Below, piece after piece: positions 23,811-57,857 of a stretch of DNA of 64,000 bases. The translations under genes were made by a program, and so were the position numbers. Under the pieces are notes generated by a model that made no database searches, was not told the origin of the DNA, and saw only the letters and a program-made list of their open reading frames with translations. Within the stretch, counting starts at the first letter, position 1. Each line of letters begins with the position of its first letter. This stretch comes from Octopus sinensis (lineage: Eukaryota): contig NC_042998.1 of the NCBI RefSeq assembly GCF_006345805.1, positions 171,988,001 through 172,052,000 on the forward strand, written 5' to 3'.

Positions 23811-25854
23811 TACTATTATAGTGTTTATATCTTTCTCAAAAAGCATAAGCATCGAAATTGAAGTGAATCTGTTTCAACTAACAATCGAAACCGTCTTACG
23901 GATATGGCTCAATAGGAAGCATAACACCTGATATACAACGCTTGCCAGATAGGAAATTGATATTCTTCATATCAGTACTATATCAGTACTTTGTTTCTGT
24001 GCATTTAACATTTATTCAGGCTGTTTCCTTCCTATTTTCCTCAAATTATACTCTTTTCTCTACTGTTCTATTTCTTTAGTGTTTTTTTCTTCTCTATAAT
24101 ACAATTTAAAATAAAAACAATATGGCCTTTATCTATGCAATATCCTTCCTCTACTTCACTAAAACAAAATAATAAAGCGTAATACCCTCTAATATGCTGA
24201 CAGAAAATGTGTGCACGTGTTAAACTTAATTCAAATTCCTTGGAGATATAATACGCGATCGAGTTTTACTGCGAAAATGAGCCAAAGTGTCACTGGACCG
24301 GAATGGTGGGGTATAGTATTCCAACATTTTTAAAAAGATCATTCTTCAACTAATGGAAATTGAATGTTGTTCTTTAGACAAAGAATGAGAACTGTTATAT
24401 TATTTTTAACTCACAGAACTCACTGTAGTGTCTGCCACTATGTAGCAAGACTATCTCTCTCCCAAGTACCATTTAGAGTTTCTACGATCACAACAATAAC
24501 TCTTACATGAGTGTGAAGCCTCATGTTTTAATGGAAACAGTTTAGAAAGTTGTAACGTTTATGGTTTTCCCGAGAGCATTGAAAGACGTAAAGCGAAACG
24601 GTACAAGTGGGGAAATGAAACTGTGTTGAGGATTCGGTTCGGCGAGAACATATCTCTACTCCACTATACTCATTACTATGGAAGAGTAAATAAGAAATTG
24701 CTATTTATTTTGTTGTTGTTGTTTTTATTATTTACTGGTTTCAATTATTTGACTGTAACCATGCTGGGGCACCATCTTCCAGGATATAGACATTTATATC
24801 AGTCTCAGTAATTACATCAATTGGTACTTATTTTATCGACTTCCGAAGGGTAAAAAGTGCTGTCGATTTTGGCGAGATTAGAACTTAGATCGTAATGAGA
24901 TACATCTAAATACCACAAATACGTTGTCTGATGCTCCACCGATTCTACCTACTCCACTGCGAAGTCCTCATACTTTCCTTAAAGACGTTAAGACAATGCA
25001 ACTTGGAATTAAAATCTGGATCATTAATTAAATTTACCCAGAGCTTGCGGTATTTAAGACAATGTTAATTCTTCAACAAGGAAGACGAATTAGAAGACCT
25101 GACGCGAAGTTCACAATGCAACACATATTTATGATGTCGACTCGTCATTAATTGATATGTTTTATGCATCACACAGCATGAAATATAACAGCTGAAATAA
25201 ATTTAAGTATTAAAAACCCTGGCTCTGACGGTAACCTAGCTATAATGTCCTGTTACTTCATGGTAATAAAAATAAGGTCATATATGGTAGTTGTATATTC
25301 CGTACTATTGATTGGGGAACGCCTTCGTCGAGGGGCAATCAACAAACCGTGGAACGATTCATGAGGAGAGATTATCTACTATTTTCCACGCATCAAAAGC
25401 TGAGAAGGAATGTGTTTGTGTTCTTATTTCTTTCACAGTCCAGTTTTCTAACACACCCCACACACGTATATATTTTTCATGTTCGTTCATTTAACCCTAG
25501 TAGTTTTTCACTGAATATTACTATGGATTGGGCGTCGAAACTGTGACGATTTTTGATCGATAACTGATGAAGGATGAGCGTGTCCACGTTCATTGCGTAT
25601 TTTTCCCCTGTCTTTCCTATGTTTCTTAGATTTCTTTGTCGTCGCTCACTGCCATGTTTTACTATGATATATATTTGTGTGTGTGTGTCTGTTTATATGC
25701 GTTTTCTGCGTTAAATGAAGAAACAGTGATGAGTGAACATTGTGTAAATAATAATAATAGTTATGTTTAAGGCATGTAAGTTGGCTAAAGAAAATAGTCT
25801 AATATTAGGGCATATAAGACCTCGACGGAAAAAAAGTGGGTGTTGGTACGCGTG

Positions 25855-26017
25855 GCGTAGGAGTGATTGTGTGGTAAGTAGTTTGCTTACCAGCCACAGG
25901 GTTCCGGATTCAGTCCCACTGCGTGGCACCTTGAGCAAGTGTCTTCTACTATAGCCTCGGGCCGACCAAAGCCTTGTAAGTGGGAATTTGGTAGACGGAA
26001 ACTGAAAGAAGCCCGTC

Positions 26018-26074
<57 letters not shown>

Positions 26075-26300
26075 CGTGTGTGTGCGCGCGCGCGTCTGTG
26101 TTTTGTGCCCCCCCCCTCAAATTACTTGATAACCGATGCTGGTGTGTTTACGCCCCCATCACTTAGCGGTTCGGCGAGGGAGACCGATAGAATAAGTACT
26201 AGTCTTACAATGAATAAGTCTTGGGGTCGATTTGCTCGACTAAAGGCGGTGCTCCAGCATGGCCGCAGTCAAATGACTGGAACAAATAAAAGAAAAAAGA
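25855..26300 (+). mobile_element. SINE family 1, full length
   Basis: Head, internal (TA)/(TG) tract and tail match the other copies. Confidence 0.9.
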
Positions 26301-27713
26301 ATAAACGCTTGCTAATGCCCACTTTTACTGTTGTGGGTTTATGTGCCTTGCTTATAAGCTTTAAGCTTATAATTATTATTCTTTACAGAATAATATGTAT
26401 ATGTAAGATATACGAGGAGTTTTCGTCAGGATGATTCAAACTAATAGGTATGCGCTGTGAGTACTCAAATTGGTATGCCACTAAGATTCTGGTTTGAACT
26501 GCAGTTGAAAATGTTATTTTGTGACTGCTTTTCTAAAGCGGCTAGAAGTGGCTTCCCCTTGAATCAGTAGATAAAGATTAAAGTAGAAAAGAAAAGGCAA
26601 ACAGTTTAGCAAGACTTAACAAGGACATTTAACTTAGCTATATAATATAAGGTTTATATAGTCTCTAATAGCTGTTTCTTTGCTATTCCGTTTATTTGAA
26701 TATCGTGTCGAGCGAGGATTTCATACGCTGAGTATACCGCCATCGGAGAGATATAGGTTAAACGTACGCTATGTTGAAGAATATTTCTCATCAATGATAA
26801 TTATTGTGGTTCATTATGTCTAGAACGGGAGAAGAAATCCAATTAAAACGAGTATTCAGTAGGTAAATCCATGCACAGAGAGAAGGGTTTGATAGTAATC
26901 CATGGCGACGGAAAATGGATGCTGGCAGTTCCAAAGTTGAACAAATACTGACTGAAAAGAAGAATAAGTATAGTACACTTTAGTGAGAGGAAGATAGGCA
27001 GGTAGAAATTTTGTACTAGATATATACTAATCGATATAGCGAGGGAAAGTCTTGTCCAGAAAGGTTAGGGAAGTGCGTGTGCAAAAACAAATAGATAAGG
27101 TATGAACAAAGCAGATGTCAGACCTACAGGTTGGGTAACAATGGGAGTGGGTAATGGAGGTAATAAATCAGTCGTAAAAAGGTAATGGACGTCTTATGTA
27201 ATAGGTAGTCGATTTTACTAGACGGGAAGGGAGAATCGGGGCTAGCTTGGTTGTTATAAGTCCTAGAAATAGATGTCACACAAGCAAACGAAAGACTTAA
27301 AGTTTGAAATTCAAGACTAAAATCAAAAATTAATATTAGAAATACGAAAAATAAAAAAAGATAAAAATAAACGTAAAAGAAAAATATTAAAATTAAGATC
27401 TGAGTATCCCGTAGTGTTAAAGGAAATATATTCCCATTGAGAATCAAGGGATAAAATTAAATACGACGATATACCCAAAGCTAATCGGGAATAAATATAG
27501 ATATAATTAAATAGTTGAATGGATAGGGTGGGGACGTTTAATTACGAAGTAAAGTATAGAAGGATGGGATGATTATGTGGGAATCATTAAATCCTAATTT
27601 CGCTCGGAGTGGTGAGCAGGTAAGCCTAGTGATACGGATACTGTATATATATACTTCGTTTTTGGATTTGGTTTGCAAGATTCTTTATGTGAGTTCGTAT
27701 GTTGAAGCATATT

Positions 27714-27927
27714 CTGTTGTGTCTGGGGAGGGTCATTTTCTTTTTGTGCCTTATAATATAACACACTCACCGGTAAAATCTCCACTTTTTTCTTAACTAT
27801 TGAAAAGGTTGCAAGACGCAACGAAAATTTTATGAAAATAAAAATAAGAAAAAAGTGGAGATTTTACCAGTGAGTGTGTGTTATATTATAAAGCACAAAA
27901 AGAAAATGACTCTCCCCAGACAAACAG
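27714..27927. repeat. Fold-back element with ~82-bp inverted arms
   Basis: 27714-27795 vs 27845-27927. Confidence 0.85.
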
Positions 27928-28260
27928 TATATATATCAGTTGAATTAAGTCAAAACGTAGTCTGGTTTTCATGTTTTTTTATTATGGTATTTTAACATTA
28001 AAAAACTAGTTTGAAATGCTCATAAAGTTAAATTAGCATTTTCACACATAGTGTCATAATCAAATTTCAAATGTCTGACAGTTGAATTCTTGACAACTTT
28101 ACTACCTCTTAGAATGCTCTACATAACCTAAAGAAACTATTAACAAAAGCCTGAACATGAACAAACAGGATAAAACATTCGCAGTATCCAAATGTAATGA
28201 TAACAGATTTGGAACGTGTTAATACATGCATTCGGGTGAATATATATATATATATATATA

Positions 28261-28776
28261 TATAAGCGAGAAAGAAGCAACAAGAATGGATAGGTTTTTA
28301 GTACAATCGTTTCATACAAGGACAGGCTTTATTAAAAGTTGTAAAAATTACAGCATATAAACGTGTCCCGTACTCATCAGCTAAAATACATGTGAGTTCT
28401 CTAGACATCCTAGTGGTTGAGGCTATACTCATGAAGTAATGTAGATAATTAAGTAACATAAACAGATTTCCAAAGTTCATTAAAGTTCTTTAAAGATGAT
28501 GTACAGTCTTATCACAGAATTTTAAAAAAGTTCTAATAGCATCACAGAGAAGGTGACCTAATCCATAGAGCACATATGAATTTCCAGAGATATGATGAGC
28601 CTGTCCTTGTATGAAACGATTGTACTAAAAACCTATCCATTCTTGTTGCTTCTTTCTCGCTTATAATCACCCCACATTACTGTATTGTTAAAACAGTATA
28701 GTTTTTTTTGGTGCATCTAAGTTAGGTACCATATTCAAGTAAATTCATTTAAATTAACTTGAATCTTTATTGCTTT
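28261..28776 (-). mobile_element. Hammerhead-bearing element in (TA)n with a 68-bp inverted duplication
   Basis: IR 28261-28328 vs 28598-28665; both ends of the element abut (TA)n. Confidence 0.8.
28296..28386 (-). ncRNA. Type I hammerhead ribozyme (HHR-F)
   Basis: The reverse complement reads UUUUAG-CUGAUGA-GUACgGGACA...UGUCCuuGUAU-GAAA-CgauuG-UA-CUAAAA. Confidence 0.8.
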
Positions 28777-28785
28777 AATATATAT

Positions 28786-28835
<50 letters not shown>

Positions 28836-28836
<1 letters not shown>

Positions 28837-29070
28837 CGAGGAAGTATGTATAGGCGAGACAGGGAATGCATTATCAAAACGCCTACGAGTCCACAGACAA
28901 CAAATCTAGAACACCAATGTTCGCCAAATTCCATTGGGCGAACATATAGAGACGTGGTCAGAAAATGTTTCTAATTTTTCCTTTCCGCAAACTACATGGC
29001 ATAAGTGAGGTTAGAAGAAAGCTAAAAAGAAAAACGGTTTTATAAAATGTTAAAACCTGTTCTGAACGGA
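28836..29070 (+). mobile_element. Penelope-like element GIY-YIG endonuclease remnant
   Basis: Translation gives CEEVCIGETGNALSKRLRVHRQQI*...QIPLGEHIETW (a YIGET..L..R...H pattern). It begins directly after (TA)n. Confidence 0.7.
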
Positions 29071-29475
29071 AATAACAATAATATAACAACTAGTTAATGA
29101 TGTGGATTTTAAAATATCTCTAGCATATAAATATAAGCAAGTTACAGAATATCGGTACGTCTGGCAAACCGTGGTGTACAAGATGCATGCGGATTGGTCA
29201 AAAAGGTATTCTAAAAATTCAGCGTGTTAGAGCATTCTAAGAGGAAATAAAGAACTCAACTGTCAGTTAAGGACATTTGAAATTTGATGATTACTCTATG
29301 AATGAAAAAGGTAATTTAACTTTATGAGCATTACAAAATATATTTTTACTGTTAAAATACCATAAGAAAAAAACGTGTAAACCAGGCCATGTTTTAACTT
29401 TATTCAACTGATATACATATATTATTCTAAATACATTCACACAAATCCGAAACAATATATAAATATGTGTGTGTG

Positions 29476-29509
<34 letters not shown>

Positions 29510-29530
29510 ATGTGTATGTATATAAATATG

Positions 29531-29572
<42 letters not shown>

Positions 29573-29924
29573 TGCAGGTCTTGGTTAATTTTTTGTCATT
29601 TTGTTACACTCTAAATTTGATGTTCTGTATAGGGATTTATTGAGCACTTTCATTAACAACGTCACGAAAATGTTTTGATGTTTTCTGAGAAATGTCCTCC
29701 CTCTTTCTCTCCCTCTCTCTCTCTCTCTAACTCCCTCCCTCTCTCTTTCTATCTCTTTCTCTCTCTCTATTTATCTATCTACCTACCTAACGAAATATCT
29801 GTCACATGTACAATCCCTTTATATATATATATATATGAGGAGGTTATACAGTTGACAGATATATGTGTGTGTGCATATATATGTATATATATATGTGTGT
29901 GTATATATATGTGTGTGTATATTA

Positions 29925-29976
<52 letters not shown>

Positions 29977-29977
29977 C

Positions 29978-30011
<34 letters not shown>

Positions 30012-30012
30012 G

Positions 30013-30073
<61 letters not shown>

Positions 30074-30079
30074 TATATA

Positions 30080-31200
30080 AACTAAGAGATAGATGCCGTC
30101 GCAGTGTGAGAGACGCCGTTTTATAAGGGCCAATGCATTCATGCCTGCTTACTTATTGGTGGTGGTTTGCAACTCAGTAGGGAGTTGGACGCTAGTGAAG
30201 CTATTGATATTTCAGTTATTTCTATAGGTGTGTGCGCTTTATCCTTGTCCGGGCTGGGTATTATAGCATTTTTAGAATGTTGTTCAGTAGTATTCCGGGG
30301 TGTTTTGAATTTATGTGGGTGATAGGAGATTTGTTTCTCGTGTAGTAACAAGGGCTTTGGGGATTGAAACATGCTGCGCCCACAAAACTGTGCTCCTCTC
30401 ATTTCTAGGTCGTCTTTAATTTCTAGTGTTTGTTTCGTTTTGTAGGTGGTCTGAGGGTGTAGCCAGTGTATACCCTGTTTTGTACTCAGTACATTATTGT
30501 GGTTTGTTGTTGAGAAATTGGCTCGCCAGACAAGACCGACATTGTCCATGATAAATCTTGATATATCATTTGTACATCGTTGTTGTTAACTCTTTCTGTT
30601 GGCCAAAAGTGCAACCTGCGATTGCTCTATGAGTGTACGTTGTTTTGGTTTCTTTACAATGTCTGCCGTGAGTTGTATGTAATTCCTAATAGTTTTTTTC
30701 CCTGTGTGATCTGCTTATACTGCTGAGCATAACGATCGGTTGTACTTGACGTTCTTTGTTTTTGTTTTTTGTTTTTTTGCTGAAATGAAACGATACTGTA
30801 GTTTTGGCAAGTTTGTTGCTGTGAACTCAGTTTTCTCGGCGATTCAAATCGAAGCGGAGTTGTTGAAGAGCAGTGTTTACGAGCGGTTGGAAGATGTGAA
30901 TTTGATATCATCTGCGTATGAAGTTGTATTTATGTTTTACAAAAGTGTAGAAAGGATTGTTAGCAAAAGCTGAAATGAGTGAATGACAGGACAGATCTCT
31001 ATGGCATTCCATTCAGGAAATTGTGGGTTCTGGAAAGGTGTTACTACACACTTCATAAACTTAGCAGCCTGGCCGGCAGATTACTAGACATCGTTTTATG
31101 TTCTGCCTTAATGTGTATATGGCGAAGTTTATGTATAAGTGACGAGAAAGGAATGAAGTCAATGTAGATGGTAGTTACAATGATACGTATAGATTTAATT
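30080..31200 (-). mobile_element. Degenerate LINE reverse transcriptase remnant
   Basis: Minus strand gives NGMP*RSVLS (GVPQGSVLS-like), TTSYADDIKF and a C-terminal [12 protein letters not shown]...LTLRRHLS. Confidence 0.7.
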
Positions 31201-31328
31201 TTTTTGTTATCTTGTATTTTTTATGTCGGGGATAACGGTAAAATTCAAGTACATGAAATAGAATGTTTATTAAATATTAGTAGAACTTTTAGGAAACATA
31301 TCAACGATGTATGTATGTATGTATGCAT

Positions 31329-31710
31329 GAATGGCCCAGTGGTTAGGGCAGCAGACTCGCGGTCATAGGATCGCGGTTTCGATTCCCAGACCGGGCGTTG
31401 TGAGTGTTTATTGAGCGAAAACACCTAAAAGCTCCACGAGGCTCCGGCAGGGATGTTGGTGATCCCTGCTGTACTCTTTCACCACAACTTTCTCTCACTC
31501 TTACTTCCTGTTTCTGTTGTACCTGTATTTGAAGGGGCCGGCCTTGTCACTCTCTGTGTCACGCTGAATATCCCCGAGAACTACGTTAAGTGTACACGTG
31601 TCTGTGGAGTGCTCAGCCACTTACACGTTAATTTCACAAGCAGGCTGTTCCGTTGATTCGGATCAACCGGAACTCTCGTCGTCGTAACCGACGGAGTGCT
31701 TCCATCCCAT
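31329..31710 (+). mobile_element. tRNA-derived SINE family 3
   Basis: A box GGCCCAGTGGTTAGGGC and B box GGTTTCGATTCCC. The head is shared with 49378-49690. Confidence 0.85.
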
Positions 31711-32231
31711 GTATGTATATATGTATTTTTCTTTGAGTTTGATTTAAGTTCTTCTTGAGAGACTTCAAGCTGGTCGCTAACAAAGTGACAAGACTTTTTG
31801 AGTTAAGAGAGTTCCCGGTGTTAATAAATATGCAGTTGATTTTGTGTGTTAGTTGAGCTGTCGATGCATACACCCAAGTGTGTGCATCTATTCACATAAG
31901 AATTTCACCAGGGCAGTTTTTGGAATTTCTTGCAAATCTTCACTGCGTCACAAATAGATTGGATTTGGAGAACCGGCGTCAGTTTCGTTTGGTCTTTTCC
32001 CGTGGAACCGAGTATTTCTACATTAGAGAGATAATTCAGAGTGACCAGTAGTATGCAAAGGATCAATATTGACAAATACAAATATGTCAAATACATAAAT
32101 TCTTGATTTATTAAAACTATCTCTATTTTATACACACACGCATACACATATATATGTAAGTATGTATATATATATATGTATGTATATATATGTATATATA
32201 TATATATACATATATATATATGTATGTATGC

Positions 32232-32299
<68 letters not shown>

Positions 32300-32301
32300 A
32301 T

Positions 32302-32680
32302 AACGTAAAGTATAATAGCCATCTCAATATGGCTAACCACAAAGGGTGGGTGTTACTGTAGCTTTTAGCCCCAGGAGATCATCGTCTCCAGCTGGCTTTA
32401 GGCACACTATCTGATTACCGCCCGATGACAAGAGGCAACTACCTCGAAACTGCGGTCCGTGCGTATCACTTAGGCTTACGAGAGAGGGATGGCCTCCCTT
32501 TGCAAATACCATAAAGGCACAGGTAGTGTGCCTAAAGCTAGCTGGAGACGATGATCTCCTGGGGCTAAAAGCTACAGTAACACCCACCCTTTGTGGTTAG
32601 CCATATTGAAATGGCTAGTATACTTTACGTTGTCGAGCGGTTACTGTTTACATCTCGTTCAAAGATTTATTATTCCTATA
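32302..32680 (+). mobile_element. Fold-back element in (TA)n with 112-bp inverted arms enclosing an atypical hammerhead-like motif (HHR-G, 32416-32466)
   Basis: IR 32302-32413 vs 32520-32631. The loop contains CCGAUGA-caa-GAGGcaacuaCCUC-GAAA-CugcgG-UC; stem I is imperfect. Confidence 0.7.
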
Positions 32681-32894
32681 TATATATATTATATATATAT
32701 ATATATTATATATATATATATAATATATATATATATATGTATATATATATGTATTATATATATGTATATATATATATATGTATATATATAGTATATATAT
32801 GTATATATATATATGTATATATATATATGTATATAATATATGTATATATATATATGTATATATAATGTATATTATATATATGTATATATATATG

Positions 32895-32945
<51 letters not shown>

Positions 32946-32987
32946 GTATATATATATGTATATATATATATATGTATATATATTATG

Positions 32988-33034
<47 letters not shown>

Positions 33035-33047
33035 GTATATATATATG

Positions 33048-33082
<35 letters not shown>

Positions 33083-33216
33083 GGTATGTAGAAAAATACA
33101 ACATGGACAAGAAGGTATAACTCTTAGAAGACGATACAATAAACACGGACAGGACATTCGAAACCCTCAGTCTTCAGTCAAGAACCGGATCATCGTAGTA
33201 ATTTCGGCTGATTATG

Positions 33217-33253
<37 letters not shown>

Positions 33254-33306
33254 CTGCATATATTCATATCTGTGTGTGAGTGTGTGTGTTTGTATATATA
33301 TATATA

Positions 33307-33459
33307 TAAATTTTATTCAACGTGTAAATACTGAACAGTATATATGTAAAGGATATTTGAAGGGTGTGAGTTCGATCCTCATGGCTGGCTGCCAGCAAAT
33401 TTTTCTACTTTATCTTTTGTATATATACTGTTCAGTATTTACGCGTTGAATAAAATTTA
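33307..33459. repeat. Inverted repeat, 39-bp arms
   Basis: 33307-33345 vs 33421-33459 (TAAATTTTATTCAACG...CAGTATATAT). Confidence 0.85.
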
Positions 33460-33627
33460 TCTTTCTACTTGTTTTACATTTCAACGTTTCGAAAACAAAC
33501 TTGTCGTTTACATAGGACGTTATATATATATATAGGGGGGGGGAGTTCACGAAAAAGCAAAAGACGAAGATAGGTGGTGTACAAAACAAACAGATGTATT
33601 AGTATAACGCTCAGGAATAGAAAAAGT

Positions 33628-33663
33628 CTTTTACGTTTCGAGCCTACGCTCTTCTACAGAAAG
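33628..33663 (-). ncRNA. Minimal hammerhead-like motif (HHR-H), CUGUAGA core variant, in element ~33533-33720 related to 4587-4795
   Basis: The reverse complement reads CUUU-CUGUAGA-a-GAGCguagGCUC-GAAA-CG-UA-AAAG; A6 is changed to U. Confidence 0.6.
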
Positions 33664-35529: not shown

Positions 35530-35818
35530 TTATGCAACCATAACATAATATATTACGGTCGCATAACGAAATACCATGTACCTATAAATAAGTAGTGTTT
35601 ACGTACCAGCTTCCAGGAATGCGTTTGATATGTAAATTGGTATATCCAATAAATATATACTGCTATATATAGTAGCTATTTCAGCAATGTGTTCCAGGAT
35701 GATTAATGGGTTAGAGGGTACTGATGAAGGGGCAAACACCATCGATGTATGGCATATACGCCCATTACCCATTTTTCCTCTTATTGTCGGCACTATAATA
35801 TTCTCGTCGCCATTATTA

Positions 35819-36860: not shown

Positions 36861-36874
36861 TTTGGTTTCTTTAG

Positions 36875-44483: not shown

Positions 44484-44538
<55 letters not shown>

Positions 44539-44631: not shown

Positions 44632-44676
<45 letters not shown>

Positions 44677-44794: not shown

Positions 44795-44840
<46 letters not shown>

Positions 44841-45580: not shown

Positions 45581-45621
<41 letters not shown>

Positions 45622-45679
45622 GATATATGATTGATTGATTGATTGATTGATTCTAGTTTCAGCTTATGAGCTGTGGCCA

Positions 45680-47262
45680 TGCTGGGGCACCGCCATTTGG
45701 TGTTGCTACTTGGTTTCACTTCATGGAGGCTTTCTAGCAACTGCTATTTGGTGCATGAGAGAGTTCGATGCAGCTGCCCTCATCTGCCCCTCCTGCCGTG
45801 AAGTTGGTTCATCTGGGACACCTGACAGGAAGAGATCCAGCTCCATTTTAAAGACATCTGTATCCACCCCATGCAGGTCTCTCAGGTTCATCGGGAGGAT
45901 ATTGAAGAGCTGTGGGCCTCGGAAGCCCAGGCTATCACAGAATCTTGTCCTACATCTTGATGGCAAGTTTGGAGTGCTAGGCACCACGCAATGGCGCCCA
46001 GTTCTGGCATTTGCGTAACTCTCGATGCCAAAGTTCAGGACACTTCCCTCCAGGATCTTCCAGATGTATATTATGGCATATCTTTCCCGCCTACGCTCCA
46101 GGGAATATAATTTTAATCTCTTGAGTCTTTCCAGTAGCTTACATTCTGCATAGGCTATCTTCTCATGTAGTCGTTGGATCGCCTCAAGTTCTGTGATCAA
46201 CTTGACACTGGATGGTGACCATAGCTGAGAGCAATAGTCAAAGTGACTTAGGACAAGTGTCTTCCAGACGACCATCATGGTTTCTTGTTCTCTTGTTCTA
46301 AAGGTTCTAAGAATCCATCCAGCCAGCCGTCTGCATTTCATTGTCAGTTTAGAACATGTACATGAAAGGTCGCGTCATCACTCATGTGAATACCCAGGTC
46401 ACGCAGATTGTGCCTCTGGGATTGCAATCCCTCCGGGTCCAGTGTATTCCTTGGGTATTGCATTCAGTTTTGCATGCTGATAGTATAAAGCTTGAAACTT
46501 TTCAGCATTGAACTGCATGCTATTCTTTTCAGCCCACTTGTATTTTCGTCCAGCTCATATTGCAGGTGCCTAGTGTCTTCAGGGTTCTGTATTGCCTGTG
46601 AAACTTTTGTATCATCTGCATAACTTGTGATCGTGGCTCTCGCGTGGCTGAGGGCATGTCTGAGAGGGCCATTATGAACAGTAGTGGTCTCAAAACAGTG
46701 CCCTGTGGAACACCGCTCACTATTTGCGTGCTAATGGAAGTGGCCCCATTGGCTACTACCCACCTGACTTCTATTCTTCAGAAGTCGTGAAGCCATTCTC
46801 CAGTTTTCCAACTATGCCCAAGTTCACGCAGTTTGTGACATATCATTCCATGATCGACTTTATCGAAGCTTTGCGAAGTCGAGATATATGACTTCCACAT
46901 TGAGTGTTGAGCAGTTGTTTCAACCCAGTCATAGTGCTGCAGGAGCTGAGTTAAGCAGCTTCTTCCTGGTCGGAAACCATGTTGGGTGTCAGGCAGCAAG
47001 TCATTTTCTTCAAGGAAGGTGATTAGTTTCTTCTGACTATTCGTTCCATGACCTTGCTGATGTGTGAGGTCAGAGAGATAGGTCTGTAGTTCTTGGCCTC
47101 CGCTCTGCTACCTCCTTTATGAATGGCAATTTTACCTTCCTTCAGTTTTCTTGGAAGTTTGCCAGCTGCAAGGAAGCTCTGAAAGAGGAACTGCAGTGGT
47201 CTTGCTAGACTCTCTTACATATTTAGGAGGATTGCCGGGAATCCATCGGGGCCAATAGCTGA
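45680..47262 (-). mobile_element. CR1-group LINE, 5'-truncated, frameshifted RT
   Basis: QHGFRPGRSCLTQLL, FDKVDH, SGVPQGTVLRPLLF, YADDT and GWILRTF...SHFDYCSQLWSP...LYSLERRRERY. Confidence 0.9.
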
Positions 47263-47312
47263 GTATACATATATATGTATATATATGTATATATATGTAT
47301 ATATATATATAT

Positions 47313-47344
<32 letters not shown>

Positions 47345-47606
47345 ATATAGATATGTGTGTGTGGTGTGTGTGTGTGTATGTAGGTGTGTAGTATGTATGT
47401 ATGTATGTATGTATGTATGTATGTATGTATGTATATAAAAACCTTGTTGTATGCTAATCAAAGCACGTTCACAGTTATTGGTTACCGAATGTCATCATAC
47501 AGTGCAAATGCTCTTGCTACTGGATATACGTCAGGAATTCCATAGTATCCGTAGAGTTTATATGAATAGAAGCATATTAGAAAATAGATCGATCGACATT
47601 CTTTAT

Positions 47607-47717
47607 TTAAAATCATTACAATTGTTTCGACACGTTTTAATATTTGGAGTACATAGGTGAGATGATGTAATTAAATCTTTCACGATGTAAGATGTATTCT
47701 TCGGTAGATTGTTTTAA
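47607..47717 (-). ncRNA. Degenerate hammerhead-like motif (HHR-I), CCGAAGA core
   Basis: The reverse complement reads aaucua-CCGAAGA-auac...guguc-GAAA-CAAUUG-UA-augauu. Stem III is palindromic; stems I and II are imperfect. Confidence 0.5.
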
Positions 47718-48137
47718 ATAATTCCTTCGTTTGATCATACTTTCATTTCATCAAGCGTGAGAAAGAATACCCAAAGTAGGGTGCAATTTTCAGCAATTTG
47801 CGGACAAAGCTTAACTCAGGAAAACAAAATACTGTTATAATCAAAATTAAAAAATACAGAAAGAGAAAGAAACAAAAACCTCATCAAGTTGACAATAAAT
47901 TACAATTCTGTCTTCATGGTCTGATTATAAGGAAGAAAAGGTAAAACAGAATGAAGAGTAAAATTAAGTGTTTAGCTATAGCAACGTGAAAGTGATGAAA
48001 ACTGACCATTTTTGTGCTTATCAACTGTTACCTTGAAGGATCTAAATCAACCCTACCTTTCACAATTTTATTATATTCCCTTATTTCTGGCTCTATAATA
48101 GTTATAATGTATATAAGAAGTATATATACATTCATGA

Positions 48138-48475
48138 AGGCGCATGGCTCAGTGGTTAGAGCATCATCTTATGATCGTGAGGTTGTGAGCTCGAATCCCG
48201 GACCGGGCTGCGTGTTGTGTTCTTGAGCAAGGCACTTTATTTCACGTTGCTCCAGTTCACTGAGCTGTAGAAATGAGTTGCGACGTCACTGGTGCCAAGC
48301 TGTATCGACCTTTGTCTTTCCCTTGGATAACACTGGTGGCGTGGAGAGGGGAGGCTGGTATGCATGGGCGACTGCTGGTCTTCCATAAACAACCTTGCCC
48401 GGACTTGTGTCTAGGAGGGTAACTTTCTAGGTGCAATCCCATGGTCATTCATGACCGAAGGGGGTCTTTACCCCT
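48138..48475 (+). mobile_element. tRNA-derived SINE family 2
   Basis: GGCGCATGGCTCAGTGGTTAGAGC...CGAATCCC head; the body matches 23182-23520. Confidence 0.85.
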
Positions 48476-48809
48476 TATATACATTCATATATAAACATAT
48501 ACTTGTATATAAATATTCTTTCATACACGCATATATAAAGCAGTGCATATAATATACTTGGCCGCTTTTGTATACACATACAAGTGATATATATATCACT
48601 TGTTAAGGTTATATAGCCTTACTGATTGTGTTACGGCGTCTCGTATACGAGACACCTGATCGAATGAGATCGAATATGAAAATGAATAATGGACGTATAT
48701 GCCATATTTCAGAATCTTTTGCTCCTGCATTAGCACCCATCCAACCCATTAATCATCCAAGAACTCATTGCTTAAATAGCCACTAAATATAGCGGTTCAG
48801 CGTTATTGG

Positions 48810-49217
48810 CTTTACTCTTTTACTATTTTATTTGTTTCAGTCATTTGACAGCGGCCATGCTGGAGCACCACCTTTAATCGAGCAACTCGACCCCGGGACT
48901 TATTCTTTTGTAAGCCCAGTACTTATTTTATCGTTCTCTTTTTGCCGAACCGCTAAGTAACGGGGACATAAACACACCAGCATCGGTTGTCAAGCAATGC
49001 TAGGGGGACAAACGCAAACATACACGCACACACACATATGCATATATATACATATATACGACGGGCTTCTATCAGCTTCCGTCTACCAAATCCACTCGCA
49101 AGGCTTTGGTCGGCCCGAGGCTATAGTAGAAGACACTTACCCAAGGTGCCACGCAGTGGGACTGAACCCAGAACCATGTGGTTGGTAAACAAGTTACTTA
49201 CCACACAGCCACTCCTT
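48810..49217 (-). mobile_element. SINE family 1, near full length
   Basis: Matches 16419-16857. Confidence 0.9.
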
Positions 49218-49377
49218 TTACTAATTTTATATATTAAAAACGTTCCTGGAAGCTTGTATGTAGGGACACCGTATTTCTAGCACACTAGAACGTAGTACTG
49301 ACTTATAAAAATGTTTAATATACTTTGTATATGATGATTGCATAATGAAATACGGTGTCCCTACAGGTCATTAATGT

Positions 49378-49690
49378 GGAGGCGTAATGGCCCAGTGGTT
49401 AGGGCAGCGGACTCACGGTCTGAGGATCGCGGTTTCGATTCCCAGATCGGGCGTTGTGTGTGTGTTATTGAGCGAAAACATCTAAAGCTCCACGATACTC
49501 CGGCAGGGGGTGGTGGCGACCACTGTTGTACTCTTTCGCACCAACTTTCTCTCACTCTTTCTTCTAGTTTCTTGAGTAACGCTGCGATGAACTGGCGTCC
49601 CGTATAGCTAGGGGAAACACATACGCCACAGAAACCGGGAAACCGGGCCCATGAGCCTGGCTAGGCTAGAAAAAGGCACATTAATAAAAA
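49378..49690 (+). mobile_element. tRNA-derived SINE family 3 with a different tail
   Basis: The head has the same structure as 31329; the 3' half diverges after CTTTCTCTCACTCTT and ends A-rich. Confidence 0.8.
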
Positions 49691-49722
49691 AAAAGCAGGT
49701 CATTAATATATGTGTCTACACA

Positions 49723-49761
<39 letters not shown>

Positions 49762-50916
49762 CATGTATCTGTTTATATATGAAAATGTATATACTTCTTA
49801 TATACATTCTTATTATTAAAGAGCTCAGAAATACAGAGAATGTAATGATGTAAAAGAAAATATTGACATATGAGTAACATAAAATATACCTACATATATC
49901 TATTTATATTTACACATATATACACTTCTAATAAATGTCCTCACTATTTTTGCTATATATATATTAATATAGGCTGAGTTTAACTCAAATTGAAGGTGGT
50001 ATATATAATTATATTAAGTACTCGTTTACATCCGCCAGCTTTTCCGGACGCTTAATGCTCCGGCGCCTCCGTGGTGACAGTGGTCTTGATTTTAAAGCGC
50101 GCGAAGCCACGAATACGTCTCGTAAACCAACTGATGAGAAAAATCCGCTATGAATGTTCCTTGTATAGTGCTTATGTTTTCGCCCAGTTTTCGTCTAAGT
50201 TTTCCCTTTGTTATATTCTTTTTGTTTAACCTTTGGAATATGCATTGTAGCGCCACGTACTCCCTACAAACACACACACATACACACACACACACTAACG
50301 CGCGCGCGCGCACACACACACACACCACACACATACACACACATACACACAGTTCAAATTTACGGAAGCAAACGACGAAGACAGGTGCGGGAACAACAAG
50401 CAGATATATTAATTTAACGAACGAGAAGAGGCTGAGTGAAATGTGACCTGGATGAACTAGGGTGCGCAAGCGCATGTGTGAATGTGTATGCGTGAATGGG
50501 GGCAAGTATGTGTTAATGTATGTATGGGCGAGCTTAAAATTACGTGGGCCTCTGTGTAGGAGTGTGTGTGTGTATGTGTATAAGTAGTGCGTGTATTGTG
50601 TGGCCTGATGTGCGTTTCGTGTATTTGTGGGTATGTGGGCATATGGGCGTGTGTATATGTGTGAAGCTATTACCTATGTGTATGTGTGTATCAATGTGTG
50701 TGTGTTCGTGTACAAACGCTTGTGCGTAACAGTTAATGTGTGCCTGATCGAGAGATGTGTGCACTTCTGTGTGTGCGTGTGTGTGTGTGTGTTAGTGTGT
50801 ATATGTGTCACATTCATTTAATGTTCTTAAAACAGATAAATTGATGCAATATAATAAAGAAAAATTAAAGTAAAATAAGCAGATTGCATCAATAGAATTT
50901 TAGATATTAATTTTTT

Positions 50917-51281
50917 TTACTACCAGTCACATGGTTCCGGGTTCAGTCCCACTGCCTGGCACCTTGGGCAAGTGTCTTCTACTATAGCCTCGGGCCGACC
51001 AAAGCCTTGTGAGTGGATTTGGTAGACGGAAACTGAAAGAAGCCGTCGTATATATGTATGTGTATGTATGTGTGTTTGTGTGACTGTGTTTGTCCCCCTA
51101 GCATTGCTTGACAACCGATGCTGGTGTGTTTATGTCCCCGTAACTTAGTGGTTCGGCAAAAGAGACCGAGAGAATAAGTACTAGGCTTACAAAGAATAAG
51201 TCCCGGGGTCGAGTTGCTCGATTAAAGGCGGTGCTCCAGCATGGCCACAGTCAAATGACTGAAACAAGTAAAAGAGTAAAA
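50917..51281 (+). mobile_element. SINE family 1, slightly 5'-truncated
   Basis: Matches the other copies. Confidence 0.9.
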
Positions 51282-51284
51282 CTA

Positions 51285-51790
51285 CAGAATGGGCATTTTA
51301 ACTTGTAGTTGCATCTAATAACTATTTCGGAGTGCCAATTCGCAAGTACATCTATACATATTAAAATGCATAATACCTCCTCAAACAGAGACTACAAGAT
51401 CTTAAAAATGTATTGTACGGATATGCATTTTTATTGCCGTCCGTGTGATGTTGCACGGCACTTTTCCTTCCTTAAGTTTCCAGACCAGATCAGCAAGTGA
51501 TGTGCAGTATTTCTTGTTAATGTTTTTAAACAATGCAAAGTGATTTCGATACTGATATTTGAAGCAACCTGTGGTTGTACCAATGTACACAAATGCATCT
51601 ACTATAGTTCTAATTGTACATTTCTATGTTACGTTCTTATGAAGGCATTCGTTTCCCAGGGGATCTGCGTTTCTGCCCTTAAAATTACAATTCTTTACCA
51701 CACTATATTTTATTCGGTAGCATTCTGTCTTACTTCTACTTCTAAGTTTTTCTTTACTGTTTCTGACGTTATTATTAGTGGTATCATGAA
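51285..51790 (-). mobile_element. Penelope-like element GIY-YIG endonuclease remnant
   Basis: CNFKGRNADPLGNECLHKNV...VYIGTTTGCFKYQYRNHFALFKN...TSLADLVWKLKE, the typical PLE GIY-YIG pattern. Confidence 0.75.
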
Positions 51791-52100
51791 AGCGGTGAGC
51801 TGACAGAACCGTTAGCACGCTGGACGAAATGCTTAGCAGCATTTCGCCCGTCGCTACGTTCTGAGTTCAAATTCCGCCGAGGTCGACTTTGCCATTTATT
51901 CTTCTGGGTTGATGAATTAAGTACCAGTTGTACACTGGGGTCAATGTAATTGACTAGCCCCTCCCTTCAAATTTCAGGCCTTGTGCCTATAGTAGAAAGG
52001 ATTATTAGTGTTAGCATTAAGGCGGCGAGCTGGTAGAATAGTTAGCCCGCCGGGAAAATGCTTAGCAGCATTTCGTCCGTCTTTATGTACTGAGTTTAAA
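51790..52100 (+). mobile_element. SINE family 4 copies (one longer, one head fragment)
   Basis: GCGGTGAGCTGACAGAACCGTTAGCACG...CTGAGTTCAAATTCCGCCGAGGTCGACTTTGCC; a second head starts at 52020. Confidence 0.8.
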
Positions 52101-52126
52101 TTATTATTATCATCATCATCATCATC

Positions 52127-52177
<51 letters not shown>

Positions 52178-52639
52178 GTTGTTGTTGTTATTATTATTCA
52201 ATAAAAGAGCTGCACATTACCTTGCAAGTGGGGTCCAGTTAGAATTTTCTTTTAGTCGAGTAGCCCATCCCGCTCAAAAGGTCCCTGGATAAGGGTTGTT
52301 TAAGGATGTTGAACGAAACGCCCATGTTTCCAGATGTGAATTATTCAAACCCCAAAGAATCCCTCTATACACATGGCTATGATGCTCCCCCACTACTTCT
52401 GCTCGTGATCAGAGATGCACATATCGTCAGCCACTAAGGGACATGCTCAACTGGTTAAGGTCAAACAAATGACAAGCAAATCTGTGGTATTGAGCAGAAT
52501 ATTTGCTGTAGTCCATCTTTTATACCAAGACAAAACAATGTACATGATAACACTTCCAATCAGTTAAGATCAGGAGCCATGAAAGCCACTGCCTGGTACT
52601 GCATCAGGGCATTTATTATTATTATTATTATTATTATTA

Positions 52640-52679
<40 letters not shown>

Positions 52680-52750
52680 ATTATCATTATGTCGACTACC
52701 ACCTTTCCCCAGAATTTCAGGCTTTGTACCTATAATAGAAATTATTATTA

Positions 52751-52789
<39 letters not shown>

Positions 52790-52809
52790 CATTATTATTA
52801 TTATCATTC

Positions 52810-53280
52810 AGTAGTTTTATTTTATTGTGTGCTTTCACTTCACTACGAGCGCAGCTCTGTGGCCTTGGGTATGTGCTGTGATTTGTTGTGATGCTCTGAT
52901 GGTTATTGTATGGAAAGTGTTCTGCGTAGGATGTGTGCAGTGCCTAGTAGTGCAATTTTCTGTGTGTTATATGTGTTTGTAAGTCCTGGTGTTTTTTTTA
53001 TGTATTTGTCTGAATATTTTTTTTATCATGCCTAATGCACCTACTATGATAGGATTGTTTCTGTTTTTAGATTCCACATTCTGGTTACCTCTATTCCAGG
53101 TCTTTGTATTTTGAAAGTTTCTCCATTTCTTTTAGAGACACGTTGTCATCTGCCGGTATTGATACATCAATTAGAAAGCATTTTTTTTCTTCATGATCTC
53201 TGACAACTATATCTGGTCTGTTGGCCTTAATTTCTCTATCTGTGTGTATCGGCATATCCCAGAGTATGGTTGCTTTCTCG

Positions 53281-53282
<2 letters not shown>
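52810..53282 (-). mobile_element. Dong/R4 LINE 3' fragment (RLE endonuclease) inserted in (TAA)n
   Basis: TILWDMPIHTDREIKANRPDIVV...CFLIDVSIPADDNVSLKEMEKLSKYKDL...IPIIVGALG...QKIALLGTAHILRRTL; flanked on both sides by (TTA)n. Confidence 0.9.
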
Positions 53283-53344
<62 letters not shown>

Positions 53345-53379
53345 TAGCTGTGAATTATATTACACATTCGGGGGTTTCC

Positions 53380-54200
53380 GCGTATTTACGTAGTTTTGCA
53401 TGCGGCCTAGATGTTATCTAGAATGTGCTGTAAGATAATCTTAATCTCTCCGGAATCGTAAACTTCGAGTTACCTTGAGTAGTGTAATTCGATATGATAA
53501 GATTTCCAGTCGGCTTTGTTCCAGTCGAAGCGAACAGTTTGGTGATGGTGTTTGACTTTTCTGTCTGCCTATTAGAGACAGACTGGCAACAGTCATAGTT
53601 GCTTAAAGGTCCCTCAGCAATAACGCTGATAGCAAATCCGAGACTTGTAGTAAATAACAAATCTAAGGTGCTACTACTTCCTCTAGGGGAGGTGGCTACT
53701 TGGACCAGTTCGAATCCAGTACAAAATCAAAGAAACCGTTTACATCTTGCATTCAGTGAAAGTTTAAAAGATTTATCACACTGAAATTACCAGTAATGAA
53801 AATACGAGAAACTGCTTTCTTGGATGGGACTCTGAAGATGTCAAAAATCTCTGAATCCTGATTGTAGTTTGGGAAACTGTTACTAATCTCAAGCAAAAGT
53901 TAGGCGGGATTCGGAGAAACAAAAAACACCTTTTGCTGTGACAGACTGTAAATCATCACAAAAAATCACTGTAAAGCTTGAGAACGAAAATAGCCATCCT
54001 ATTATTCTCACAGCCATCTGAGTGGTCTATATGAAACCAGTTGTAGACAGCTACGCCAAAACATCGTCACAGAGTTAAGAATGTCTATATTTCAATAACT
54101 GTAATGAAATCGTTGTTTCTACTTTTAATGTAAGAAACAAGATCATGGACTCTGTAGCATAAACTGCAGGTATTTAAAGCCCTACATTGTAATTGTGTTT
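53380..54200 (-). mobile_element. Degenerate LINE AP-endonuclease remnant
   Basis: LNTCSL...DFITVIE, ITGNF and STLDLLFTT...GPLSNYD occur in APE motif order. Confidence 0.55.
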
Positions 54201-55133
54201 AAGCATATCATGATTCTAGATAGTGAGGGAATATAGCATTGCTTAGTATCCCGAGGGCTTTTTCGTTCTTGCCGGGTAATTTTCGCAATAGAATGTCTTG
54301 ACAGACTTTCGGAATAGCACACCCACATAAGTCGGATTTTCGCCGTTCTGATGGGGATTTTTCAAATTTGTTTTCCACTTGCACCTTTGCAAAGGATAAG
54401 GGAAAGCATTTTATGAAAATAGTTTTGAAAATCTATGAATCCCTCCTCACCACTTCCGTACCAATTTTGTTCATGTTTTTTTTCTGCATTTTTTTTCATT
54501 ACTCACTTATAAACAATGGGAGATACCTTTTCGGTAAAGAAAAAAAAAACTATTTCGAAAATTTATGAACTTTTTCAAGCCCACTTCCCAACTCAGTACC
54601 GATTTTGGCCTGCGTGTTTTTGCACTACGTACTTAAAAACGATGGCTGAAGCTCGAAGATTTAAAAACCAGAAAAAAATTTGGAAAAGGCGATCACCATC
54701 ACAATCCCTACTTCCTTTATTTCCAAACAGGAAATGAAACGTAATTTAAAAACAATAGGGAAATCTTATTCATTTTTTCATGAACCCTGCCCCTCCATAA
54801 ATCCTCAAATTTCGGCTTTTTCTCCAATTTTTTAAAAATCATAGTTTTATAAGACGGAGAGACCGAATATGCAACTTGTTTGTTTATAATTTCAAAATAA
54901 TTTTCAGGCGAAAAAGTATGTGATTTAAGGGAGATATAGCTATTGTTTCTAGCACGTCCCAAGACTACCTGCTACCTTACTTGTTTCTTTGTCGTTTTGA
55001 CGTGTATTGATGTCTTTCAATATTTTTCTTTCCATAAACACATTTTCTGGTGATCCATTGCTGGTATATAAGCAACAACAACAGCAAGAATATGTAATTT
55101 AAATTTTTAATCTCCCACTCCGCATCAAGCGAG

Positions 55134-55168
<35 letters not shown>

Positions 55169-55931
55169 AAATATATATTTACTCACGGAAAAGTATGCTA
55201 TTAAGATAAATTATCATCTACCTAACTTTTAAAATTACTTTGTCGCCCCACCAAAAAAATGCATGCACACAAACACGCACACTCAGCATGAGCGAGGTAC
55301 TTGTACAGTGAGTGAGAGAGAATGTGGTAAAGGTGTATAGAGAAAAAGAAGTTTACCATGAGAAAAACGAAAAACCAAAAATGAAAGAGAGAGAGGGGGG
55401 AGGGAGGGAAGAAGCTCATTTCTGTTGCTGTCATAGATTTTGAAGTTTTAAAAGTAAGTGAAAAATTTTCGAATTTGGTATATTGATGTCCTTTTTCATG
55501 TTGAATCCAAGTTTGTGATTCGTTTATTCCAGAAAAATTTTAGAAAAATGTTTCAGAGGATTAAAGCTTAATCATTTTTATCCAATAAGAAAACAGGATT
55601 TGTGCCTAATAGTTGTCATAAAAGAAAGTAAACATATGATGAGATTTTAAACAAAATGAAAGCAATGCGTGAGAGTTAATACATATACAAAGAGTGTGAG
55701 TGTTAAAGAGTATAGTAAATATATAAAGAGAGATACATTAGTGGTGAAAAATTGAGTGGAAGAGTTGTTATTCCTCGTAACAAATATTTTTATTATCATT
55801 ATTTACAGACGGCATTTTCTTTATGACGCAGATTTCGAAAATCAAATTAGTTTTCCTCGAGGATGCACCGTTTCAGAGCCTTTCTGGGCTAACCACATAC
55901 TATCGCATTAATATAGTAGATATAAAAATGT

Positions 55932-56070
55932 AGGCGCAAATGTGGCTCTGTGGTAAGAAGCTTGCTTCCCAACCACATAATACGAGGTTCGTGGCATCTT
56001 GGGCCTATTATAGCCTCCTACTATAGCATCGGGCTGACCAAAACCTTGGATTTGGTAGACAGGAACTAAA
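55932..56070 (+). mobile_element. SINE family 1, 5' fragment
   Basis: TGTGGTAAGAAGCTTGCTTCCCAACCACAT...GGATTTGGTAGAC. Confidence 0.7.
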
Positions 56071-56179
56071 TCCTCTCCGCATACAAATACTCATACATTT
56101 GTATATATCATTGTACAATACAAAGTTTATTTAGGATAATTATAAATATAAGGTAAACCTTAATAGTGTGTGTTTTAGG

Positions 56180-57150
56180 AAATTCACAAACGTCACAAAG
56201 CTGTTACACGGAAAGAAAAACCTATAGTGTAATAATTTAATTTACTTTTAACTGCGAGACTTGATTGTTTGTTTACTAAAAACACTCTGCAATGACCCTG
56301 TTAGGCATATTACTGATCAGATGACGAATATTCTCTTGCAGAATTCTTGCCAAGTTTCATGCAGTAATCTCAAAAGATCTGGTTTTTGAGGATGCCTTCT
56401 TCTTCTTTTTTATGAAGTGTCTTGTCCATTACGTCCCAGAGGTGTTCAATAGGGCTAATATCTAGTAAGTGGTTTAGCCATGGAACCCTTTTAATGCCAT
56501 TCTCCTCCAACAAATCTTGGGTCAATTTAGCCGTGTGACAAGGCGCTCCATCTTCCATAAATAAAGTCTTCTTTAATCATTTTACCCCTGGAGAATATTG
56601 GAAGGAGTCCTTTCTTCAATATGGACACATATTTATCTGAGTTTATGCTTCCCTCACGTTCCACCAACTCTGATCAACCGTTGCTCTACATTGCTCCTCA
56701 GACCATCTCAGAATAGCTGTCGTGTTTCATTGTTGGCTGCAATCTTTTCACATCAAATTATTGATCAAAGAGTCTCCAGACCCACACTCGACCACTGTAA
56801 GGAAATACAGCAAACCTGTTGGCTGATCGAATAAGTGGCTTCCTTCTTGCTGCTCTACCATAATAACCAAGTTTGTGAAGATACTTGACAGCTGTACTGG
56901 GACTGACATCAAATTGTTCTGCTATGTCAGAGGACTTGCGACGAGTATTATCCTCCACACTTCTCTTCACAAAAAGAAGAGTCCTGTCAGAGGGCCCTGG
57001 TTGATGTAGGCGAGGTGATGTGGACTCCTTCTCCTCTCTGGTGAATTGCACACATGCACGTAGAGTGCAGATAAAAAGATAAGCAAAAGTTTATCAGGAG
57101 CCAATGCAAATAATTTAGAAAATGTTGGTTAATCTGTGGTTTTCTCCATT
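56180..57150 (-). mobile_element. Tc1-family transposase remnant
   Basis: DVSPSTAVKYLHKLGYYGRAARRKPLI and MEDGAPCHTAK...PWLNHLLDISPIEHLWD. Confidence 0.85.
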
Positions 57151-57176
57151 TTCTAATTATATATATATATATAATA

Positions 57177-57231
<55 letters not shown>

Positions 57232-57370
57232 ATAATTTAATAAATAAAATATATGCATACATACATATATGTACGTACCTACATCTACATGTATATATAC
57301 ATGCATATATATATATAAATATAAATAAATATATATATATATATATATATATAAATATAAATAAATATAT

Positions 57371-57416
<46 letters not shown>

Positions 57417-57608
57417 AATATATATATAATAAATATAAATATATATATTAATATATAAATATATTATAATATATATATATATAAATATATATATAAATAT
57501 ATATATATATAATATATATATAAATATATATATATAAATATATATATAAATATAATTATATATAAATATATATATATCTATATATATATATATATATTAT
57601 ATATATAT

Positions 57609-57650
<42 letters not shown>

Positions 57651-57857
57651 GAGTACAGGACACCACAAATAGACGTAGAACTCAACGAGAAACGAAAACA
57701 TAAAAACAACATGGAAACGGACTTTTCTTAACACCGAAAAAACAGAGTACAAGACAACAATACAAGGAATATTCCCTTTCATCAGCTGTCCCTGGTTCGA
57801 CTCCATGCGTGTTTCGAAGGTAAGGACAGAACACGACCGGCGAACCAGTCCTTCCTG

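Follow-up and report, generated by a model that had tools for sequence, protein, structure and literature searches.

Hammerhead ribozymes can be described as three blocks: C, which consists of a stem I strand, the CUGANGA box and a stem II strand; G, which consists of a stem II strand, the GAAA box and a stem III strand; and S, in which a stem III strand is followed by UH and a stem I strand. In the parts of the literature consulted here, a non-circular permutation in the order S-G-C has been validated in metatranscriptome RNAs, and no such permuted hammerhead is reported from the genome of a known organism, one weak GCS candidate being the sole exception (Eckert et al. 2023, PMC10085705). Penelope-like retroelements carry minimal type I hammerheads within their terminal repeat, which can accommodate one additional nucleotide separating position 9 from 10.1 and have been proposed to function as dimers within tandem transcripts (Cervera and de la Pena 2014, PMC4209133). 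The Naiads, a group of Penelope-like elements that target (TA)n and survive in cephalopods as remnants, are reported to lack canonical hammerheads, with eight cases of an unexplained half core in which the GAAA half lies on either side (Craig 2021, PMC8557442). Here we describe four sites in a window of 64,000 nucleotides (nt) from Octopus sinensis (NCBI RefSeq assembly GCF_006345805.1, contig NC_042998.1, positions 171,988,001 to 172,052,000, forward strand), a stretch of AT-rich eukaryotic DNA that is rich in microsatellites and broken transposons.

At two of the four sites the strands read P-S-G-C', where P is the 5' strand of stem II and C' comprises a stem I strand and CUGANGA. Judged from its sequence, the feature is real and hammerhead-like, with the expected core letters and pairings at these two sites; it is not type II, and it lacks one defining feature of type SGC. 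The predicted order, with the backbone open between A9 and G10.1, is none of the six permutations of Eckert et al. 2023. We consider it quite probable that all four sites are decayed 3' remnants of Naiad-type Penelope-like retrotransposons, two of them with a complete P-S-G-C' hammerhead fold predicted to self-cleave after H17.

One of the closest known systems is type SGC/HRIMA-1 (PMC10085705), which shares with these two sites the order S, G, CUGANGA. Type SGC has a 3-nt linker between stems I and II and 15 nt from U16.1 to G12, compared with 3 nt and 16 nt at the best-preserved octopus site (site 4 below). Like that site, it has a helix (hereafter I helix) which joins the strand after the stem II 5' strand to the strand before the stem I 5' strand, and it has a doubly pseudoknotted core. 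Unlike in type SGC, the predicted stem II 5' strand in the window is separate from CUGANGA and precedes S, an arrangement that would contradict the published assumption that block C is uninterruptible; the published SGC descriptor demands that the partner strand follow the box immediately and allows a linker of no more than 15 nt. Moreover, type SGC is known from metatranscriptomes (viroid-like RNAs), whereas the window is genomic DNA. Type CSG, of which the same paper has two metagenome sequences, has the same cyclic strand order, such that P-S-G-C' corresponds to CSG with its stem I strand and CUGANGA shifted to the 3' end. Nematode and spider Naiads resemble type CSG in having, by eye, an intact CSG order and an I helix, whereas the window form is opened between A9 and G10.1 and both of its strands link the I helix to stem III. 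The type I hammerheads of PMC4209133 differ in having a C-G-S order and stems II and III that are hairpins, stem III being minimal and palindromic, as opposed to the long stem III and the three mutually crossing stems in the window.

Box pairs and strand order at the four sites

The initial annotation had drawn attention to the pattern CGAAR-N23-26-CUGANGA, which is present as described at site 1 (25536-25570, plus strand), site 2 (33171-33206, minus), site 3 (50102-50137, plus, with CGAAG) and site 4 (57779-57816, minus), with spacers of 23, 24, 24 and 26 nt, respectively. These four occurrences compare with a mean of 0.205 (maximum 2) in 200 block shuffles and an analytic expectation of 0.24, for a spacer range that was picked post hoc. 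Over spacers of 5-60 nt the window holds seven reversed-order and seven forward-order box pairs, with about 3.4 expected for each order; because both orders are equally frequent, the box-pair signal resides in the clustering at 23-26 nt. The CUGANGA box is present at all four sites and the GAAA box (G12-A15.1) is intact at three, site 3 having a G at 15.1.

The order of the boxes was originally taken as that of a type II hammerhead, and a canonical type II (G-S-C) ribozyme has box order as its sole point in favour. The best stem III that can be formed between the boxes is 1-2 base pairs (bp) at every site, and no hammerhead family is found among the best 150 of 197 Rfam matches in the window. 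Type II is ruled out for these copies and we assign it next to no probability as an explanation of the feature. The first inspection had also found that a canonical stem III with UH and a stem II could not be built, and this holds for the segments then considered, because the partner strands lie upstream of GAAA, beyond their limits.

With G and C held fixed at each site, 150 nt on either side were scanned for S. At site 4 the upstream S provides a stem III of 5 bp, UH and eight stem I pairs, as good a match as in none of 3000 shuffles; U16.1 lies 16 nt before G12, and the linker from S to G is 3 nt. At site 3, S likewise offers a stem III of 5 bp, UH and six of seven stem I pairs (shuffle p=0.001), with U16.1 placed 19 nt before G12. 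Stem III, UH and stem I are thus in exact register at both sites, in the block order S-G-C. The predicted P strand lies 39 nt upstream of G12 at site 4, where all five positions pair, and 40 nt upstream at site 3, where four pairs form, in both cases including G10.1-C11.1. P and S jointly are matched by 0 of 2000 shuffles for site 4 and 1 of 2000 for site 3. A descriptor for P-S-G-C', which was shaped with hindsight from these sites and the Naiads, has exactly two matches in the window, sites 3 and 4, against 0.007 per window in 300 shuffles; the S-G-C part alone matches twice, against 0.09. A descriptor scan for the CSG order found no such motif in the window.

The two sites also support each other by comparison. 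Fifteen of 17 stem positions are paired in both, nine of them through changes on both sides (three per stem), the remaining two being unpaired in site 3. The I helix of site 4 consists of 8 bp (-11.3 kcal/mol) between the 8 nt that follow P and the 8 nt that precede the stem I strand, and it links the far ends of stems I and II. It is conceivable that unrelated repeat tails merely happen to contain two short boxes at similar distances, given that the spacer range was chosen afterwards, that sites 1 and 2 lack S and P and that the tails are only weakly alike. We regard such a coincidence as very improbable in the face of the shuffle tests, the nine compensatory changes and the presence, by eye, of the same layout in published Naiad consensus sequences; a chance origin of site 1 alone is possible.

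Another question is which strand completes stem II. At sites 3 and 4 a stem II with G10.1-C11.1 can be formed only by way of the upstream P (4 and 5 bp, respectively). Were these ordinary three-block type-SGC hammerheads, the nucleotides right after CUGANGA would form stem II, and the pairing with the upstream P would be an alternative or off state. The S-G-C order and the linker lengths agree with this, four pairs between post-box nucleotides and the G strand can be drawn at site 4 and four at site 2, and Naiad_Plae has seven by eye. These post-box pairings leave 1-2 nt unpaired beside G12 and lack G10.1-C11.1, being out of register at site 4, and a single pair forms at site 3. In addition, four Naiad records (Amil, Movir-2, Obim and an unassigned part-19 record) have, by eye, no post-box pairs, and all of them have P. 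An intact block C consequently appears unlikely to us, and a stem II made with the upstream P is preferred.

Sites 1 and 2 are incomplete. Site 2 starts against a (TACA)/(TA) tract that lies about 8 nt 5' of G12, and S and P are absent because the remnant starts there, i.e. through truncation. At site 1 no convincing S was found within 150 nt on either side (upstream S, shuffle p=0.56), nor a convincing P in register, and it may be a decayed copy or a different variant. Candidates that were discarded at this site include an S at 25504, whose stem I has only 2 bp, an S at 25439 with a stem III of 7 bp and no stem I in register, and a P at 25318, 219 nt away. Just 5' of site 1 a long hairpin is predicted at 25490-25532 (plus strand), the 3' arm of which is similar to the strand carrying GAAA and stem III at site 2 and is perhaps a second decayed block. 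Elsewhere, a candidate fifth site at about 29654-29692 was rejected for its mismatched core, near absence of stem II and failure to match the descriptor, and a G-C-S fold of site 4 proved weaker than the S-G-C fold.

The other features noted at the outset fared variously. A loosely similar downstream motif does occur at all four sites, at 7, 11, 14 and 4 nt after the box rather than the 6-16 nt proposed, and a pattern modelled on it has 20 matches over the two strands of the window. U-rich tails (43-48% T) run to microsatellites as described. Three small spacer hairpins exist in the sequence and are incidental to the fold found here. The sites do belong to different elements: since tail similarity is weak (shuffle p about 0.01 for three of the six pairs, not significant for the other three), they represent distinct families. 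A four-way DNA alignment placed the boxes out of register and was not used. The central proposal of a non-canonical permuted hammerhead common to these elements is supported, with the full fold confined to two of the four sites and with the hairpins and downstream motif outside the core.

Probable Naiad remnants and published consensus 3' ends

The assignment of the four sites to Naiads draws on their architecture and context. Short pieces bounded by AT-rich or microsatellite tracts are the pattern left by 5'-truncated retroelement 3' ends, and sites 2, 3 and 4 are pieces of this kind, 130-250 bp long. All four tails end at microsatellites, and in three of the four a clear 5' junction with one is present, a trait that is not specific to Naiads. 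No Naiad open reading frame (ORF; N-terminal GIY-YIG, CxC motif, C-terminal reverse transcriptase) was found among 263 ORFs of the window, and remnants of 130-250 bp would be too short to hold one. The window self-comparison revealed no tandem partner adjoining any site, as would be seen in a partial tandem with pseudo long terminal repeats (LTRs). Like the Naiads of PMC8557442, the copies show (TA)n insertion, U-rich 3' tails and survival as remnants in a cephalopod, and sites 4 and 3 correspond in layout, by eye, to the 3' motifs of Naiad_Obim/Ovul and of Naiad_Esco, respectively. They are unlike the Naiads as described, for which only 'core' or 'half core' notes are given in the consulted parts of that paper, in that they lack an ORF, and they do not themselves represent the published consensus families.

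The 3' ends of the published consensus sequences (Craig 2021, File S5) were compared by eye throughout, in place of alignment or scoring by a tool, and the comparison covered 60 of 81 and 36 of 62 occurrences of two search words, parts of two more, and 12 record junctions. In this material at least nine of 54 Naiad records, representing six independent families, have the order P-S-G-C': Naiad_Amil, Aacu and Anas (near-identical), Naiad-2_Movir, Naiad_Plae, Naiad_Obim/Ovul, Naiad_Esco and the unassigned part-19 record. Their hosts include coral, box jellyfish, acanthocephalan, octopus and squid. P precedes G12 by about 35-47 nt. Stem II varies in sequence and is 5-6 bp long (with a single mismatch in Aacu and in Esco), stem I measures 4-6 bp, stem III 3-13 bp and the I helix 5-9 bp, and the linkers between I helix and stem III measure 0-7 nt. 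In at least four of the six families (Amil, Movir-2, Obim and the part-19 record) the G strand finds no partner in the sequence after CUGANGA. Site 4 resembles the Octopus (Obim/Ovul) motif with a compensatory change in stem I, and site 3 resembles the Euprymna (Esco) motif around stem I. A second group of at least eight nematode and spider records has an intact CSG order with stems I and II of 5-6 bp (Nbra-1, -2 and -3, Hpol, Smim and three records assigned by file order to Pristionchus and Haemonchus). The catalytic core letters, U16.1 and a non-G H17 are all kept across phyla.

A number of observations, in addition to the retrospective choice of spacer range and descriptor, weigh against our interpretation. 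Penelope-type reverse transcriptase and GIY-YIG are matched neither in 263 ORFs of the window (those left of 453 ORFs of at least 55 amino acids (aa) after a low-complexity filter) nor by a motif scan, and because no Penelope protein was detected, Naiad identity is inferred from architecture and context. The full fold occurs at only two of the four sites, and one of these, site 3, has likely signs of decay (G at 15.1, a stem I mismatch and a weak I helix). Taken on its own, P falls short of significance at both sites (p=0.37 at site 3 and 0.065 at site 4), and at site 4 the G strand can alternatively bind the 4 nt that follow the box, at -3.4 versus -4.6 kcal/mol. Nested folding, a method by which pseudoknots cannot be modelled, gives different, inactive folds with unremarkable z-scores. 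Copies at sites 3 and 4 read through the predicted cut site, i.e. their template RNAs were uncut there. Among the published Naiads, a permuted hammerhead was recognised in at least 17 of 54 records; nothing was recognised in the visible 3' ends of Omin, Adux, EuTe and Dst-3, and Bfor, Ppla and Dst-2 are not resolvable by eye. The 3' end of Naiad-1_Movir has a twister-like sequence in place of a permuted hammerhead, its signature having been compared by eye with a twister alignment, which suggests a ribozyme replacement. Lastly, two hemichordate Naiad 3' regions share a distinct motif around CGAAAC with no CUGANGA close behind, possibly a further structured RNA.

Predicted cleavage and its implications

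Despite A9 being unlinked to G10.1, the strands P, S, G and C' would assemble a standard hammerhead core, and the RNA would be cut after H17, i.e. after 57830 (minus strand) at site 4 and after 50085 (plus strand) at site 3. The cut may process the tandem transcript of the element, as happens in other Penelope-like elements. Short linkers (5 and 8 nt at site 4) connect the I helix to stem III on both strands, and in the nested fold of site 4 the two make up a long hairpin that has S and G in the loop. Such a hairpin, with linkers of 0-8 nt and with P and C' at the base, would be hard to close within a single molecule. The two helix ends in question are far apart in the known hammerhead structure, a difficulty that is also raised by Eckert et al. 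2023 (PMC10085705). A strand-swapped dimer of two repeat copies, in which the loop of one copy is bound by the P and C' tails of the other, is the simplest solution and probably the active form; alternatively, a monomer with an opened I helix could be active. A dimer would be consistent with a tandem transcript that has two terminal repeats and with the dimeric model proposed for the hammerheads of other Penelope-like elements (PMC4209133).

Cleavage would have to be incomplete or controlled, since sites 3 and 4 span the cut site. This same fact is compatible with a fold that is real and non-catalytic here, serving near the 3' end as a hammerhead-derived signal for recognition by reverse transcriptase or for RNA stability, as are the short I helix linkers, which strain a monomer, and the poor cleavage in vitro of Penelope-like element hammerheads in the sources consulted. 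We give this possibility little credence, because the core letters, U16.1 and non-G H17 are conserved across phyla and because the twister-like sequence at the same place in one Naiad (both by eye) suggests selection for cleavage itself.

More broadly, we lean somewhat towards the view that Naiads have kept hammerheads as non-circular permutations, CSG in nematodes and spiders and a four-strand form that acts as a strand-swapped dimer in corals, box jellyfish, acanthocephalans and cephalopods. This would constitute a seventh natural topology, the first non-circular RNA permutation in animal genomes, and a path from CSG to P-S-G-C' within one retroelement clade. No report of permuted Naiad hammerheads or of a split C block was found in the literature searched, which leaves subscription papers mostly outside. 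If the proposal is true, it would change both the published claim that Naiads are without hammerheads and the claim that the hammerhead rearranges only as three unbreakable blocks. It would provide many natural sequences for covariation, kinetics and structure, compared with the two available to Eckert et al. for CSG, and it would make the role of ribozyme cleavage in Penelope-like retrotransposition addressable through a fold with a possible built-in dimer requirement.

The tail of site 4 contains two imperfect repeats of the cleavage block at 57651-57665 and 57746-57759 (minus strand), one of them at the element's extreme 3' end and retained by both tail-only copies (shuffle p=0.07); a second cut there would release a unit of about 170 nt. 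As candidates for S (57754 and 57660) these repeats were rejected, the better one with p=0.07 not being significant.

Feature coordinates and other elements of the window

Table 1. Positions of the four sites, their predicted hammerhead strands and related copies in the window
Feature	Position	Strand	Remarks
Site 4 remnant	57651..57859	-	5'-truncated piece of about 209 bp with (TA)n tracts on both sides; best preserved of the copies
Site 4 strand P (stem II 5' strand, 10.1-10.5)	57850..57854	-	5/5 pairs
Site 4 I helix, strand pairing with 57792..57799	57841..57848	-	duplex -11.3 kcal/mol
Site 4 block S	57824..57835	-	stem III strand 57831-57835, U16.1 at 57831, H17 at 57830, stem I strand 57824-57829
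Site 4 predicted cut	between 57830 and 57829	-	after H17
Site 4 block G	57808..57820	-	stem II 3' strand 57816-57820, GAAA 57812-57815, stem III strand
Site 4 I helix 3' strand	57792..57799	-	
Site 4 block C'	57779..57791	-	stem I 5' strand 57786-57791, CUGAUGA 57779-57785
Site 4 downstream motif	57766..57774	-	alternative folds pair it with the P region or spacer
Site 3 remnant	50016..50267	+	runs from a short AT tract up to (AC)n
Site 3 strand P (stem II 5' strand)	50063..50066	+	4 pairs
Site 3 block S	50080..50092	+	U16.1 at 50084, H17 at 50085; stem I strand 6/7 pairs; predicted cut after 50085
Site 3 block G	50099..50110	+	15.1 is G, not A, likely decay
Site 3 block C'	50124..50137	+	CUGAUGA preceded by the stem I 5' strand; the I helix is weak here or has decayed
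Site 2 remnant	33079..33213	-	keeps G (GAAA 33202-33205) and C' (box 33171-33177); without P and S
Site 1	25530..25666	+	G (GAAA 25537-25540), C' (box 25564-25570), U-rich tail
Tail-only copy, site 4 family	1493..1618	+	76% identical, truncated at downstream motif, inserted in (TG)n
Second tail-only copy, site 4 family	2146..2271	+	within local tandem duplication 1045-1726 / 1707-2379

Hammerheads of more familiar design may also be present in the window. A canonical-order type I hammerhead lies between (TA)n tracts at 4027-4080 (minus strand), with a stem I of 7 bp, a stem III of 4 bp and a weak stem II, and has no hammerhead counterpart among the best 150 of 197 Rfam matches. Two copies of a Penelope-type type I hammerhead that are 70% identical (20399-20480, plus strand; 4440-4523, minus strand) combine a palindromic stem III with a stem II whose loop, at about 42 nt, is unusually long, and a minimal Penelope-type core at 4690-4722 (minus strand) has an extra nucleotide after A9 and a stem II of 4 bp.

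The remaining features are largely derived from other repeats. At 17510-17628 (minus strand) a 5S rRNA-like sequence scores 70.3 bits, above the Rfam threshold, and is directly followed by a piece of the abundant short repeat, so that it may be a pseudogene or the head of a 5S-derived repeat. An open frame of 463 aa at 18255-19643 (minus strand) has a weak zinc-knuckle match and resembles a retroelement ORF1, and none of the scored candidates is homologous to it; it is adjoined by a near-perfect palindrome of 370 bp (19812-20181). Remnants of a broken long interspersed element (LINE) reverse transcriptase and of a Tc1/mariner transposase are found on the minus strand at 45724-47107, 107-508 and 56373-57090, and the named matches of the LINE fragment are distant animal proteins only. 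A family resembling short interspersed elements (SINEs), about 450 bp long, occurs at 16414-16858 and at least eight other places (e.g. 20994-21388, 25859-26305 and 48810-49216), with copies that are 70-90% identical.

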